From an uncultured Acidobacteriota bacterium (GTDB taxonomy: Bacteria > Acidobacteriota > Terriglobia > UBA7540), in NCBI GenBank assembly GCA_963731705.1, contig CAVSWQ010000045.1, positions 981-64,980 of the forward strand: DNA of 64,000 nucleotides. The letters are read 5' to 3'. Positions within the stretch are counted from its first letter, which is position 1, and every line of letters starts with the position of its first letter. Positions 47,585 through 51,869 of the stretch are shown one piece after another. The translations under genes were made by a program, and so were the position numbers. The notes under the pieces are model-generated. The model was not told the DNA's origin and did not search any database. It saw nothing but the letters and a program-made list of their open reading frames with translations.

Positions 47585-48238
47585 ATGAACAAGAAACAGG
47601 TTCCGGCCGTTCCCGGCCATAGCTCCAACTCAGAGACTGGAATCAATCGCCGTGAGATGGTCCGGCGATTAATGCTGGCCGGAGGCGCTGGACTTGCTCT
47701 GCCTGGCATCACCGAGGGACATCCCATCGCCAGGCACCTTGCAAATCAGGGTGCGGCCGCAAAAGCTGCTTCCACGGCTGCAAATACCGACGGGTCCCCG
47801 GCATTCCTTGATCAGCATCAGAGCAAGACCCTGGAGGTTCTGGGCGAGCGCATCATTCCCGGCTCATCCAAGGCCCAGGTCAACCGCTTCATCGACCTTC
47901 TACTTTCTGTAGACACGCAGGACGCACAGAAGAAATTCATCGCATCGCTCTCAGCTTTTGAAGCGGAATCCCTCAAGCGTTTTTCCCATCCCTATAAAAA
48001 CCTCACCGTAAGTCAGCAAAACGATATCCTCACTTCAGCTTCCACAGCAAAACACGGGGAAGCCTCGGGAGACCAACCGCACCCGGTCACCTTGCGTGAT
48101 CACTTTGAGAACCTCAAAAGCTGGATTTCGGGCGCTTATTACTCGTCGGAAATCGGCATGAAAGAACTGGGATGGACAGATCAGGTTTTTTTCACAAGTT
48201 TCCCGGGGTGCCAGGATCCAGGGCAACACCAATCGTAA
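47585..48238 (+). CDS. gluconate 2-dehydrogenase subunit 3-like small subunit with a twin-arginine signal
   Basis: 217 aa. The sequence INRREMVRRLMLAGGAGLALPG is a Tat motif. This subunit is a common partner of GMC flavoprotein subunits. Confidence 0.7.
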   Translation: MNKKQVPAVPGHSSNSETGINRREMVRRLMLAGGAGLALPGITEGHPIARHLANQGAAAKAASTAANTDGSPAFLDQHQSKTLEVLGERIIPGSSKAQVNRFIDLLLSVDTQDAQKKFIASLSAFEAESLKRFSHPYKNLTVSQQNDILTSASTAKHGEASGDQPHPVTLRDHFENLKSWISGAYYSSEIGMKELGWTDQVFFTSFPGCQDPGQHQS

Positions 48239-48591
48239 CTACTTTACTGCAGCACTCCCTCGCCCTTCACTTTGCCATCAGCCCGAATGATAGGCACAAT
48301 GGGTGCGTGAATTATTAGGGAATAATAAGAAATAAGGTTTCATCTGATGGGTTCCATTTGCTGGAAAATGCGCCGGGACCAACGCCTCGCAAGGCGTCCA
48401 GCTGTGCCGAAAAGGATTCCAAAACCCTACGCAAGATGCTGTTAAAAAACAACTTACAAGACATTGGCTTGAGGCGACCAGCGGGCTGCCATCCGGCTCT
48501 GAAACAGAATATCATTCAGCAAGTGGAATATTTCAGGTATATTACTTTTTGCTTAATAACTTTCTTTTGTTTACTTTCAGCCCGTTTTCCC

Positions 48592-48619
48592 TTGACATGT
48601 CCCAGTTTTGTGGCACAAT
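48592..48619 (+). promoter_or_regulatory. candidate sigma70 promoter upstream of the repeat-peptide gene
   Basis: TTGACA (48592-48597), 16 nt, CACAAT (48614-48619). It is followed by the inverted repeat GGTAAC..GTTACC (48621-48644). Confidence 0.35.
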
Positions 48620-48729
48620 TGGTAACGGTAGATTAGCAGTTACCTATTGACTTGGGAGGCATTGTTAGATAGGCTCTCTTCCACTGCGGGAAAAATTTAA
48701 CCCGATAGATTCACCTGGAGGAGAGTCTG

Positions 48730-48975
48730 ATGAAAAACTACATCCTGACCTTTGTGTTGGCTGTGCTGGTTGTGCTGGCGAGCGTGTCTCTGCGAAGAGC
48801 TATTGCTCCTAGCAGTGTTGATATGAGCAGCGCGGGAACCTTGTTAGCGATTGGGCCATCGCCCGCCCCGCTTCCGCCGCGTGTTTCCGCGATTGGGCCG
48901 TCACCAGCGCCGCTTCCGCCGCGCGATTCTGCAATTGGGCCATCGCCGGCGCCACTTCCGCCGCGCGCTCAGTAG
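48730..48975 (+). CDS. small (81 aa) signal/TM peptide followed by three AIGPSPAPLPPR repeats
   Basis: ATG follows CTGGAGGAGAG. The product has a hydrophobic N-terminus (MKNYILTFVLAVLVVLASV) and then 3 x 14-aa units. Confidence 0.65.
   Translation: MKNYILTFVLAVLVVLASVSLRRAIAPSSVDMSSAGTLLAIGPSPAPLPPRVSAIGPSPAPLPPRDSAIGPSPAPLPPRAQ
48847..48972 (+). repeat. 3 x 42-bp in-frame tandem repeat (coding)
   Basis: The units are 48847-48888, 48889-48930 and 48931-48972. Within the 12-codon core, the units differ only at synonymous third positions. Confidence 0.95.
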
Positions 48976-49042
48976 GATTTTTTATGAGCTCTGAGCAGCC
49001 TGGCGAGGCCTTCGAAGGTTAAGGTTTTCAATCAGGCTGCTT

Positions 49043-49792
49043 ATGAGTGCCATTACAGCAAGCAACCTTTTGAGCTACGCCGGGTATATCCTCGAGGCGG
49101 GCCTATTGGTGTATCTGCTTGTGCATGGTCACGCGAAACGTCTCTGGGAACTGGTTTTTTACCTTGTCATGTCGCTCAGCGTTATCGGTGCTCGCAGCTA
49201 CACGCTGCATCACTATGGCTTAGACTCATCGCAATATTGGAACTGTTACTGGACAACTGATTTGTTGCTCGTATTGGCCGCTTTTGTCGTGGTCGCTTCC
49301 TTTTTCAGGCGCGCCTGCTCCGAAAACGCGGAAATGTGGCAATTTGTAAGGCTGTTGCTGGGAACGGTTCTCGTCGCAATCACAATTGTCTCCTTTTTCT
49401 CGCTTTCCAGCCATAAAGACAAGGTGTTTTCCCTCTTTATTGTTCAATTCTCACAGAACCTTTACTTTGCCAGCCTTGTGCTGACCACCCTCTTATACCT
49501 CATGACCCTGAAAATGGAGGTTGCCGACGATAGGCTGGGAATGCTGGTTTGTGGATTAGGCATCGAGTTTGCCGGCCCGGCAGCAGGTTTAGCATTATTC
49601 TATTTGGCGCGGGGAGCCGAATTATCCCGCCTGGTCGGAGTCTACTTTTTCCCGCTTTGTGATATCGGAATGATCTTGACCTGGTTCTATGCCGTTTCCA
49701 GAGTACCCGATCTGGCGAAAGTCCCTCGCCCCAGCGTGGGCAGGGTGGATGGAACACCCGCCTATGCGCGAGGAATTATTTCCCGTTTTTAA
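49043..49792 (+). CDS. hypothetical 7-TM membrane protein
   Basis: 249 aa with about seven hydrophobic helices. No recognisable catalytic or family motif. GC content is lower than in the flanking genes. Confidence 0.6.
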   Translation: MSAITASNLLSYAGYILEAGLLVYLLVHGHAKRLWELVFYLVMSLSVIGARSYTLHHYGLDSSQYWNCYWTTDLLLVLAAFVVVASFFRRACSENAEMWQFVRLLLGTVLVAITIVSFFSLSSHKDKVFSLFIVQFSQNLYFASLVLTTLLYLMTLKMEVADDRLGMLVCGLGIEFAGPAAGLALFYLARGAELSRLVGVYFFPLCDIGMILTWFYAVSRVPDLAKVPRPSVGRVDGTPAYARGIISRF

Positions 49793-50281
49793 TTGGGGCT
49801 TCTCATGTTTCTTGCTACCTTGATTTTGACATTGTCGATCGCAATGTTTTTCTTTTACATTCAGACGATTTGTCTGAAGATCCTTCGGCAGGAGTTTGAT
49901 CGCGACTATTTCCTGCCCATCGTCAATGCCAATCGCCTGGAATTCCCGACTGTCCGCAAGGCTGTGGAGAAATTCGACGCCCCCATCGACTACGCCCGAT
50001 TTTGCATGATGTTGAAATGCGACTTTCTGGCCCTGAGCTACCTGCTGAAAAACGCTGCCAACAAAAGTCATCGTTACACGCCGCAGGACCGGCTTTTGAT
50101 TCTCTACTTCCATCTCACCTATTTCATGCTGCGTCTCCGGCACTTCCTGAAATTCGACCAAAAGACGCCGCTCCTCCGCCTGACTTCAATCCTTCAGTTT
50201 TTCGGAAACGTGGTCGGCCTGCGCGTCAGTTCGACCCACTTCAGGGAGATCAGCGCCTCGGATTACCTTCTCACTCTTTAG
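49793..50281 (+). CDS. hypothetical protein with an N-terminal TM helix and a helical soluble domain
   Basis: A TTG at 49793 immediately follows the upstream stop (alternative ATG at 49805). 162 aa, about 35-48% GC locally, and no recognised family. Confidence 0.55.
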   Translation: MGLLMFLATLILTLSIAMFFFYIQTICLKILRQEFDRDYFLPIVNANRLEFPTVRKAVEKFDAPIDYARFCMMLKCDFLALSYLLKNAANKSHRYTPQDRLLILYFHLTYFMLRLRHFLKFDQKTPLLRLTSILQFFGNVVGLRVSSTHFREISASDYLLTL

Positions 50282-50408
50282 TCCGTTCCACCTGCAGACA
50301 ACCGCACAGGATGCCGTTAAACCCGGCTTGTGAAAAGTCCTTCCTTAAACCCCCTTGCTTGTTCCCCGTTTCCTTTCCTGCCGCGGTATCGGCCGATATA
50401 CTAAAGTG

Positions 50409-51869
50409 ATGAGCATCCTTTCAAAACCTTCAACCGCGAATGCTGATTCCCGCAAGGCCAAGATCGTTTGTACTCTCGGCCCGGCGACTGACGACCCTGA
50501 AGTCCTTACCGCCCTCCTCACCGCCGGCATGGACGTTGCGCGCCTCAACTTCTCTCATGGGTCGCACTCGGAACATGGCCGGCGGCTCAGAAAACTTCGG
50601 GCTGCTGCTGCAACCTGCGGCAAGGCCGTGGCCGTCATGCAGGACCTTCAAGGGCCCAAGATTCGTACCGGATCGCTCGAAGGCGGCCGGCGCGTCGAAC
50701 TGCGAGACGGCGCTCCCATAACCATTACCACCCGGCCCGTCCCATGCAATGACCGCTTTATTTCCACCACCTTCCAGAGCCTTCCCCAGGAAGTGCGCCC
50801 GGGCAACAGCATCCTGCTCTCGGATGGCCTCATCGAACTGAACGTGGAGAGCGTGAGAGGAACAGAGATCCGCTGCCGGGTGGTGAATGGAGGGGAACTG
50901 GGTGAGCGCCAGGGCATCAACCTCCCCGGCGTCGCTCTGGGGATTTCCGCCCTGACCAGGAAAGACCGTGAAGACCTCAAGTTCGGCATTCAGAATCGCG
51001 TGGATTACATCGCCCTTTCCTTTGTGCGCCGGGCTGAAGACGTGCTGGCTTTGAAGCGCATTCTTGCCCGGGCTGAACGGTCGATTCCCGTGGTCGCCAA
51101 ACTTGAAAAGCCGGAGGCGATTGATCATCTGGATGATATTCTGCGGGCGACGGACGCCGTCATGGTAGCTCGCGGCGATCTGGGAGTTGAATTGCCTCCG
51201 GAAATGGTCCCGGCCATCCAGAAACGGATCATCAACAGCGCTTTCGCCGCGCGGGTTCCGGTGATTACCGCAACCCAGATGCTCGAGTCCATGACCGTTC
51301 ACTCGAGGCCGACCCGCGCGGAGGCTTCCGACGTTGCCAATGCGGTGATTGACGGCACGGATGCTCTGATGCTGTCGGGGGAAACCGCCACGGGCCATTA
51401 CCCCGTGAAGGCCGTAGGGATGATGGCGAGAATCATTTCCGTCACAGAAGGCACTCAGCGCTCAGTGGGTTTCCACGACGGGAGGAACTGGAACGAGGCG
51501 CTGGACGTACCTGAAGCCATCTGCGAATCCGTGGCGCACATGACGGCCGAACTGGATCTGAAAGCGGTGGCGGTTTTTACACAATCGGGATCAAGCGCTC
51601 GCGTCATTTCAAAATACCGGCCCAGGGTCCCCGTCTTCGCCTTCTCCCCTTTCGACAACGTGCTACGGAGGACCGCGCTCTATTGGGGTGTGAAGCCCGT
51701 CCACATGCGCAGACTTCAATCCACCGACAAAATGGTGGAGGCAGCCGCCCAGCGGTTGCGAGAGATGGGCGTGGTCAGCCGGGGTGACTTCATTGCAGTG
51801 ATTGCCGGCAACCCCATCGCCAAACGAGGGAGCACCAATATTTTCAAAGTGCATCGGGTTGTAGGATGA
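50409..51869 (+). CDS. pyk: pyruvate kinase
   Basis: ATG at 50409. Contains KIVCTLGPAT, ARLNFSHG, MVARGDLGVE and TQMLESM motifs. Confidence 0.95.
   Translation: MSILSKPSTANADSRKAKIVCTLGPATDDPEVLTALLTAGMDVARLNFSHGSHSEHGRRLRKLRAAAATCGKAVAVMQDLQGPKIRTGSLEGGRRVELRDGAPITITTRPVPCNDRFISTTFQSLPQEVRPGNSILLSDGLIELNVESVRGTEIRCRVVNGGELGERQGINLPGVALGISALTRKDREDLKFGIQNRVDYIALSFVRRAEDVLALKRILARAERSIPVVAKLEKPEAIDHLDDILRATDAVMVARGDLGVELPPEMVPAIQKRIINSAFAARVPVITATQMLESMTVHSRPTRAEASDVANAVIDGTDALMLSGETATGHYPVKAVGMMARIISVTEGTQRSVGFHDGRNWNEALDVPEAICESVAHMTAELDLKAVAVFTQSGSSARVISKYRPRVPVFAFSPFDNVLRRTALYWGVKPVHMRRLQSTDKMVEAAAQRLREMGVVSRGDFIAVIAGNPIAKRGSTNIFKVHRVVG

Follow-up and report, generated by a model that had tools for sequence, protein, structure and literature searches.

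A three-gene locus of Terriglobia

We analysed a stretch of 64,000 nucleotides (nt) from an uncultured Acidobacteriota bacterium (contig CAVSWQ010000045.1; hereafter, the window) and studied three consecutive genes of its forward strand. The first, which we call pep, encodes a small protein of 81 amino acids (aa) with three proline-rich repeats. The second encodes an orphan membrane protein with seven transmembrane helices (7TM), and the third a protein with a single N-terminal transmembrane helix (p158). The three genes occur together in Terriglobia and in the more distant Acidoferrales, within a gene the repeat cores of pep differ almost exclusively at synonymous sites, and the start codon of the 7TM gene is buried in a covarying RNA hairpin. 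We tentatively read the locus as encoding an exported or anchored modular protein that works with two membrane partners.

An earlier note, made from the sequence alone, had described three open reading frames (ORFs) at this locus, and all three are present as given there (Table 1). The stop codon of pep lies 67 nt upstream of the 7TM gene. The note gave the third protein a length of 162 aa, starting directly after the stop of the 7TM gene. Such an ORF does exist, from the TTG at 49793, but the ATG at 49805, which leaves a gap of 12 nt, is the likely start, because the 930 homologues found in a search with p158 are almost all exactly 158 aa long and start at an ATG.

Conservation of the trio

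With the 7TM protein as query, 200 hypothetical proteins were recovered from metagenome-assembled genomes (MAGs) of Terriglobia or Acidobacteria. Scanning genomes gave 16 loci, with 38–97% identity of the 7TM protein, and scanning metagenomes with the p158 alignment gave 80 further loci; every homologue is from a MAG or a metagenome. In 77 of the 80 loci fetched through p158, the p158 gene is immediately preceded by the 7TM gene. A pep-like ORF precedes the 7TM gene in every one of the 87 loci with upstream DNA (12 loci with no such ORF, where the contig is cut within 130 nt of the 7TM gene, were excluded). The trio is also found in a remote tier, "Candidatus Acidoferrales" (7TM profile E ~1e-28), e.g., as MRRILVSLCIALVLLCSVVGLKNVVAEQTGTTPTIVAVGGMPPPPIPTLGVGGMPPPPIPTLGVGGMPPPPIPTGN, followed by the 7TM gene and then by a gene for a 157-aa homologue of p158. 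The proposal that the three genes form one unit is therefore upheld.

The genes around the trio differ between clades. In the clade of the window it is flanked by the gene of gluconate dehydrogenase subunit 3 and, downstream of p158, by pyk, an arrangement kept down to 58% identity of the 7TM protein. A second clade has purH and a VWA gene upstream, and a third has the ffh-rpsP-rimM-trmD-rplS operon downstream. Only the 7TM and p158 genes are conserved next to pep, the other neighbours being clade-specific housekeeping genes. Since the flanking genes change while the three genes stay together, the trio is a conserved unit, and its distribution suggests a vertically inherited module of Terriglobia and Acidoferrales. 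We found no earlier description of the trio family in the literature.

The exceptions to the 7TM–p158 order are three loci. L065 (3159–4477) and L085 (3161–4477) carry two tandem p158 genes beside an unrelated gene, with neither 7TM nor pep and with a duplicated upstream stretch before each p158 copy, and L089 carries a lone p158 copy. The genomes concerned may carry the full trio too, with these copies being secondary.

The small gene is usually unannotated and is often skipped by gene callers. For example, no pep gene was called in L099, and in L100 the only call over that stretch was a 41-aa gene on the opposite strand. The exact sequence of the window pep was not found in a collection of 15 billion proteins, though both neighbouring proteins are in it. 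There were no further pep-like ORFs in the ~0.7 Mb of fetched loci.

Proline-rich modules under purifying selection

The N-terminal hydrophobic signal or anchor of pep (residues 1–26, positions 48730–48807) is followed by a linker and by three units of 14 aa. At the DNA level the array in the window is, according to Tandem Repeats Finder, a repeat of 2.9 copies with a period of 42 nt and 84% identity. The codon table drawn up by hand in the earlier note is exact: seven of the 12 core codons vary between the units, and every change is synonymous. The note took this as purifying selection on the peptide, a conclusion that the family strengthens considerably. We counted the distinct variants per column among the units of one gene, in genes with at least two units. 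The 10-codon cores of 52 genes hold 324 synonymous and 13 non-synonymous variants, whereas the spacers of the same genes hold 95 and 159, which is close to the neutral expectation. The synonymous excess in the cores has a p-value of ~1e-134 (binomial, with an expectation of one-third synonymous), a figure that overstates the independence of phylogenetically related loci. The pattern is universal across the family. It is also not confined to the end of the protein: in L016, which has eight units, modules as far as ~120 residues from the stop codon are constrained like the last one.

The history of the units can be followed in related loci. Unit-specific codon patterns are stable in close relatives (the window, L002 and L018), and hence the units are not homogenised on this time scale. 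Between L005 and L033 the units are orthologous one to one, with a third unit of the form SIG...PPN-AQ in both, and unit-specific synonymous differences persist. From one lineage to another the cores nevertheless switch residue simultaneously in all units: at position 4, one of these two loci has Ser throughout its three units and the other has Ala. At short range the variable core positions outpace the divergence of the 7TM protein (identity of 0.77 vs 0.93), and copy number is equal in just 49% of the pairs with 90–97% identity of the 7TM protein. Because the excess is synonymous, the residue changes are concerted and the variable positions diverge fast, each module is a functional unit of the protein, and the uniformity of modules within a gene is itself maintained. 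Units that diverge in codons yet are identical in protein, and that switch together, seem to point to a specific molecular partner.

The number of modules ranges from one to eight across the family. Among 75 distinct genes, roughly 18 have one module, 15 have two (a few of these calls are false), 25 have three, seven have four and ten have five to eight. The module follows the pattern small residue-I-G-x-x-P-x-P-x-P(P), with I (or V), G, P5, P7 and usually P9/P10 invariant. Positions 3, 4, 6 and 8 vary by lineage, giving PSPAPLPP, PGPMPFPP, GAPVPMPP, TDPVPLPP, PEPVPPL and others. In the later units IG is preceded by A, G or S (117 of 129 cases), with mostly V, A, L or T at position -3. Several clades have their first IG right behind the small-x-small site that ends the N-terminal region (...SSSLRQAFA, then IGGAPAPMPKAVG, then IGGAP...). 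The position after the core is R, K, S, H, N, M, Y or G depending on the lineage; the Arg found there in the window is not conserved, and processing after Arg, as once suggested, does not hold as a general feature.

The two ends of pep

The N-terminal region has the consensus MKN(Y/L)xLTFLLALLVVL(T/A)xxSxRR followed by a small-x-small site, and the pattern MKN-(17 hydrophobic residues)-LRR-AxA is found family-wide. Across three classes of pairs its identity is 0.92, 0.88 and 0.59, vs 0.93, 0.75 and 0.43 for the 7TM protein, so that the segment is conserved as strongly as the 7TM protein or more. The DNA encoding part of the hydrophobic segment (VLAVLVVLA) has a period of 9 nt (TTGTGCTGG three times, positions 48752–48778), probably a by-product of the Leu/Val-rich sequence.

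The C-terminus is rich in proline. The last Pro lies two to three residues from the stop codon in 56 of 69 peptides, and a PP is present in 63; the remaining six have none, and no RAPP/RAGP-like motif was found among the 69. The pep of the window has neither Cys nor His.

RNA structures at the 7TM start and in the pep leader

The 7TM gene has no Shine-Dalgarno (SD) sequence, and its start is covered by a hairpin. The core stem ends at position -1 of the ATG, and an extended stem pairs the ATG and the second codon. In the window the hairpin has a minimum free energy (MFE) of -33 kcal/mol (z -3.68). Compensatory changes are found in nine of the ten core pairs among 57 diverse loci, e.g., AGCAGCCUG/CAGGCUGCU, AGCGAUCCG/CGGAUCGCU and AGUGACUCGAA/UUCGAGUCACU. 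The start region (-12 to +3) has a mean paired probability of 0.84 vs 0.58 in shuffled spacers, and the observed pairing exceeds the shuffled mean in 67 of 71 loci.

The distance between the pep stop and the 7TM start is nearly constant across loci (60–70 nt). The base of the extended stem lies 9 nt past the stop in the window and ~9–13 nt past it in the clade of the window and in one other clade, which is where a terminating ribosome has its leading edge. In the window, the nucleotides pairing with the ATG are found 13–17 nt past the stop. According to this geometry the stem would be at best within reach of a terminating ribosome, and beyond that of one stalled at the last PP. Masking the first 10 nt past the stop leaves the hairpin closed in MFE folding of the free RNA (0.79 vs 0.85). 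In one clade an alternative hairpin (94.6% paired) begins 3–5 nt past the stop and uses one strand of the main stem. We considered a ribosome-dependent switch between two structures (P1/P2) in the spacer, but none could be clearly demonstrated: the hairpin that buries the start dominates thermodynamically with or without a simulated ribosome footprint. We also set aside an attenuator based on proline codons, of the mgtP type, which leaves the conserved non-Pro positions and the membrane segment unexplained and for which there is no terminator-like alternative structure.

A second structure lies upstream of pep, where a predicted long-range helix would pair its SD and enclose a small hairpin (~48685–48705). 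The MFE of positions 48626–48745 is -35.5 kcal/mol (z -2.26), and the pep start region has a paired probability of 0.83 (66 loci). RNAalifold predicts the helix, supported by one-sided G-C/G-U changes only, with no true covariation. The segment that can pair with the SD overlaps the family-wide invariant TAGGCTCT. A search of positions 48200–50450 against Rfam (E<=1) gave no RNA family.

Both upstream elements proposed from the sequence, the TTGACA-16-CACAAT promoter candidate and the GGTAAC/GTTACC inverted repeat, are present. The former is the best promoter-like site of the region and would give a 5' untranslated region of ~105 nt, so that the helix sequestering the SD would lie inside this leader. 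It is kept in the clade of the window and in several others, not family-wide. A sigma-54 reading of its TGGCAC was dropped, as the GG-N10-GC spacing is absent (checked by hand). The inverted repeat sits between this site and the TTGACTT block; only close relatives retain it, in some cases with a single mismatch, and it might serve as an operator or fold into a hairpin at the leader's 5' end. The block TTGACTT-17-TAGGCT, which is conserved throughout the family, is not called by the promoter scan (three of six matches in the second hexamer) and may be a second, weak promoter, an element of the leader RNA, or both. The position of the transcription start decides whether TAGGCTCTC belongs to the mRNA, and transcripts of two lengths are conceivable, the SD being closed in the long form and open in the short form.

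Table 1. Features of the trio locus, in positions of the window.
Feature	Position	Strand	Remarks
Upstream gene with Gluconate_2-dh3 domain	47585–48238		Pfam domain
Spacer before pep	48239–48729		491 nt, GC content 0.45
Promoter-like TTGACA-16 nt-(TGg)CACAAT	48592–48597 / 48614–48619	+	Consensus scan 10/12, extended TG
Inverted repeat GGTAAC-N12-GTTACC	48621–48626 / 48639–48644	+	Read from sequence
Block (A)TTGACTT-17 nt-TAGGCT	48647–48675	+	Nearly invariant columns in 49 diverse loci
Predicted long-range leader helix	48671–48728	+	AGGCUCUCUUCCA (48671–48683) pairs with UGGAGGAGAGUCU (48716–48728), the SD of pep
pep	48730–48975	+	81-aa small protein; SD GGAGGAGAG at 48717–48725, five nt upstream
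Proline-rich modules AIGPSPAPLPPR, three copies	48847–48882, 48889–48924, 48931–48966	+	2-aa variable spacers between
Intergenic hairpin	48984–49053	+	Core stem 48993–49002 with 49033–49042; covarying
7TM gene	49043–49792	+	249-aa orphan membrane protein, no SD
p158 gene	49805–50281	+	158 aa from ATG 49805; alternative start TTG 49793 (162 aa)

The two membrane proteins

The earlier note could assign neither membrane protein to a family, and our searches agree. The AlphaFold2 model of the 7TM protein, built with alignments of homologues, has seven helices (mean predicted local distance difference test, pLDDT, of 85.6), and that of p158 has an N-terminal transmembrane helix and a helical domain (pLDDT 83.6). 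Pfam, NCBIfam and PADLOC returned only noise for the proteins of the trio, whether queried singly or with all alignment members, and neither membrane protein matched the sequence profiles of the PDB. Searching the PDB with Foldseek, the 7TM model matched only generic seven-helix bundles (best E 0.013, TM-score ~0.5, none at E<=0.001), and the p158 model had no meaningful match (best E 4.6, probability <=0.09).

Both proteins have conserved motifs. The alignment of 7TM homologues shows YGxxSxQY, YWxTD, FFRRAC, QNLYF and GLGI(E/Q)FAGPAA, and p158, with a mean column identity of 76%, has IVNANRLEFP, MLKCDFLALTYLLKNAAN and FGNVVGxRV. We rejected a rhodopsin identity for the 7TM protein, as helix 7 has no conserved Lys in the alignment and there is no significant fold match. 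An intramembrane protease of the GxGD type, which the motif GLGIEF might recall, was set aside: in place of D the motif has E or Q as its acidic residue, and no fold match speaks for it.

A profile search of 1.84 billion representatives with the 7TM family recovered 435 clusters, mostly of ~225–260 aa, plus fragments and a few N-terminally extended members, none with a known domain. The remote homologues P0268, P0287, P0292 and P0311 have N-terminal extensions of ~70–100 aa containing ...R(S/A/T)DW(K/Q)REWL(A/G)EL..., which may be an artefact of gene calling or a distinct fusion. They are not fusions of pep with 7TM, since the extensions are unrelated to pep and are not proline-rich.

Base composition and neighbouring genes

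The locus had been described as a low-GC islet, and it is indeed the 2-kb stretch of lowest GC content in the window (0.505 vs a mean of 0.583, standard deviation of 0.028 in 2-kb windows). It is not compositionally foreign. GC content at third codon positions (GC3) is 0.60, 0.59 and 0.70 in the genes of the trio vs 0.59–0.73 in their neighbours, and the deficit is located at second positions (GC2, 0.31–0.40, hydrophobic residues) and in the AT-rich spacer of 491 nt. The low GC thus reflects the amino-acid composition of membrane proteins together with this spacer. There is no integrase or transposase adjacent to the trio in the ORF list of the window.

Two neighbourhoods deserve mention. In L101 (7635–10869) and L102 (3011–6245) the trio immediately precedes ffh (SRP54), after which come rpsP, a KH-domain gene, rimM, trmD and rplS. 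This adjacency, in one lineage only, is suggestive of a link with membrane targeting. The remote 7TM homologue P0509 (locus L104) is labelled "Candidatus Xenobia" in NCBI, yet its neighbourhood is of the Acidoferrales type (Memo, MM_CoA_mutase, HD, the trio and an OpuAC ABC transporter), and the label may be an inconsistency of binning or taxonomy.

A modular protein with two proposed membrane partners

We propose, with a probability of about 0.4, that pep is an exported or anchored modular proline-rich protein that works with 7TM and p158, whose translation is gated. The small protein would then be functional in itself rather than a mere leader, with either an uncleaved anchor or a Sec signal peptide at its N-terminus. 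Each module probably forms an extended polyproline-II stretch and would be the working unit, an epitope bound by a partner that differs from lineage to lineage. A complex of 7TM and p158 is the most economical candidate for this partner, and the number of modules would set valency or dose. The three genes would share one mRNA, in which the intergenic hairpin acts as a translational gate or coupling device for 7TM and p158, while the second helix could sequester the SD of pep. Because the SD-less 7TM start is buried in a hairpin ~10 nt past the stop, ribosomes finishing pep would be positioned to control the synthesis of the two membrane proteins.

Several observations weigh against this proposal. 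The uniformity of units could result from their birth and death or from short-tract gene conversion instead of from co-evolution with a partner. For pep, the topology is ambiguous, with positive charges at either end of the hydrophobic segment (MKN...LRR), and in the window pep a Pro directly behind the AIA site would prevent cleavage by signal peptidase I. Around one-quarter of the members have a single module, often with a poly-Pro tail (e.g., ...AIGTSPVPNPQPPPPPPPPPPGK), and multivalency is therefore not essential. On the side of the partners, the periplasmic loops of the 7TM protein are short, and p158, which is probably cytoplasmic, is conserved too strongly to follow an epitope that changes fast. 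Finally, a Pro-rich end two to three residues from the stop, followed by a hairpin over the next start codon, has the look of an arrest-peptide leader.

This resemblance leads to the strongest rival, in which pep is a cis-acting regulatory nascent peptide, i.e., an exported arrest peptide or monitoring substrate of the SecM/MifM/VemP/CutF type. Its N-terminal segment would engage an export or insertion pathway, possibly 7TM–p158 itself, and a helicase would open the base of the hairpin, inducing 7TM and p158. CutF-like proteins were collected as proteins of <150 aa, with PP in the last 15 residues, an N-terminal signal and, on the same strand, a downstream gene (PMC9973294), and pep shows all four traits. 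The prolines are close to the stop in most members, the 7TM start lacks an SD and is buried in a covarying hairpin, and the base of this hairpin, ~9–10 nt past the stop, is at the leading edge of a terminating ribosome. The known classes of arrest peptides include an L-P-P-P type, uA_LPPP (PMC10987492), with which one may compare the ends of Acidoferrales and clade-B members (...LPPPIP and ...PPLPPPPPKP). The trio also adjoins ffh in one lineage. However, up to eight identical modules are equally constrained, most of them far from the stop, which a purely cis-acting arrest motif would not require; known arrest peptides do not consist of repeated modules. The variable positions agree within a gene and differ from one lineage to the next, which would not be expected of a partner as invariant as the ribosomal tunnel. 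Six of the 69 peptides have no PP, and RAPP/RAGP-like motifs are absent from this set. A ribosome stalled at the last PP reaches approximately the stop codon rather than the stem, and the hairpin stays closed in silico under the 10-nt mask. The downstream genes are not Sec, YidC or metal-homeostasis components according to Pfam, NCBIfam and fold searches, and the N-terminal segment of pep is far more conserved than the signal peptides of known monitors usually are. We hold it to be less probable than the modular protein that we favour, yet a rival to be taken seriously, and the two can be combined, the modules then being the sensing part of a nascent-chain sensor for a 7TM/p158 machine.

The repeated cores, which are real, had also suggested a multi-core precursor, cut into proline-rich peptides of ~11–14 residues that serve as pheromones or apidaecin-like antimicrobials, with 7TM and p158 as receptor, processing or immunity factors. 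Such a precursor would account for identical cores between freely evolving spacers, for the small-x-small junction before IG (117 of 129), which recurs where the first unit abuts the signal region (...LRQAFA followed by IGGAP...KAVG and again IGGAP), for the rapid variation in copy number, which could act as a control of dosage, and for the fast divergence of the specificity positions between lineages. The 7TM model resembles a generic bundle of the rhodopsin or G-protein-coupled receptor kind, at a TM-score (~0.5) and E-value (0.013) that are not significant. Yeast alpha-factor and apidaecin are known to be made from multi-copy precursors. The case is weakened by the neighbourhoods examined, where no protease, modifying enzyme or exporter of the ATP-binding cassette (ABC) or major facilitator superfamily type is linked to the trio, nor a kinase or regulator to transduce a signal. 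Apart from small residues, the spacers show no conserved signal for processing, the basic residue that follows the core is variable, and single-module members with poly-Pro tails are common (about one-quarter of members have one module). The locus is single-copy, syntenic and vertically inherited, and p158 is very conserved, unlike in bacteriocin/immunity loci. We regard this account as improbable. Still less can be said for a horizontally acquired low-GC islet whose small ORF would be a frame open by chance, or without function, across a tandem DNA repeat. The low GC and the 42-nt repeat are what it explains, but GC3 is normal, with the deficit in GC2 and the spacer, there are no mobility genes, and synteny is conserved in relatives, from which it follows that the trio is not foreign. 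The ORF is present in all 87 loci, and the overwhelming synonymous excess (324 vs 13) together with normal GC3 refutes this idea.

Comparison with known systems

The hairpin over the start codon, the leader helix that would sequester the SD and the likeness to CutF/SecM-type architectures had escaped the earlier note. The closest likeness is with CutF/CruR (DUF2946; Rhodobacter cutFOG, Bordetella cruR-bfrG), which are also proteins of <150 aa with an N-terminal Sec-type signal and a proline-rich motif in the last 15 residues, and in which an intergenic stem-loop shields the initiation site of the next gene on the same strand (PMC9973294; 10.1101/2025.02.05.636593). Yet pep has no homology to DUF2946 (its Pfam scan returns 0 families at E<=1) and no Cys/His metal-binding motif, its mature part consists of identical tandem modules, and it precedes orphan membrane genes instead of metal-homeostasis genes. 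The hairpin of the trio hides the start codon, not the SD, and begins ~10 nt past the stop. SecM, MifM, VemP, ApdA/ApdP and uA_LPPP are likewise upstream ORFs with an export or insertion signal; they carry a C-terminal arrest region, to which the Pro-rich end of pep may correspond, and a stem-loop controls their downstream gene (PMC10987492; PMC7897499). They differ in that the genes downstream of pep are not secA, secDF or yidC, and in that pep has repeated modules, no RAPP/RAGP and an unusually conserved N-terminus.

The composition of the trio, i.e., a single-pass proline-rich protein, a multi-pass protein and a second single-pass protein, recalls TonB-ExbB-ExbD and TolA-TolQ-TolR by an analogy of architecture. 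There is no similarity of sequence or fold, pep has no C-terminal globular domain, the multi-pass protein has seven helices instead of three, the soluble domain of p158 is probably cytoplasmic, and neither single-pass helix has a conserved Asp. TonB_C, MotA_ExbB and ExbD domains were not found by Pfam and NCBIfam in the trio proteins. Yeast alpha-factor (which has a 7TM receptor), apidaecin and the multi-core precursors of peptides that are ribosomally synthesised and then modified post-translationally (RiPPs) combine, like pep, a signal, tandem identical units, spacers and a variable copy number. The trio differs from them by spacers with no processing site, by the lack of a linked maturation enzyme, by its common single-unit members and by its vertically inherited chromosomal locus.

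Significance

Acidobacteriota, and among them the Terriglobia, are among the most abundant bacteria of soil and are genetically poorly characterised. The locus defines three unannotated protein families, one of which is mostly missed by gene callers, apparently also in the source assembly of the window. A more specific and more tentative proposal than that of a modular protein with gated partners is that the trio is a new, Terriglobia-specific envelope module, in which pep, anchored in the membrane or secreted and built of identical modules that co-evolve rapidly, would be the ligand or the monitored substrate of a machine made of the seven-helix and single-helix proteins, and nascent pep would feed back on their synthesis through the hairpin. 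The trio would thereby amount to a pair of peptide and receptor, or to a membrane pathway with its monitoring substrate. If pep is a nascent-chain sensor, it would carry the CutF/SecM paradigm into a new phylum and enlarge it by a modular sensor domain and an unknown membrane pathway. If pep is instead a ligand or subunit, the trio would represent a new envelope system based on a 7TM protein.

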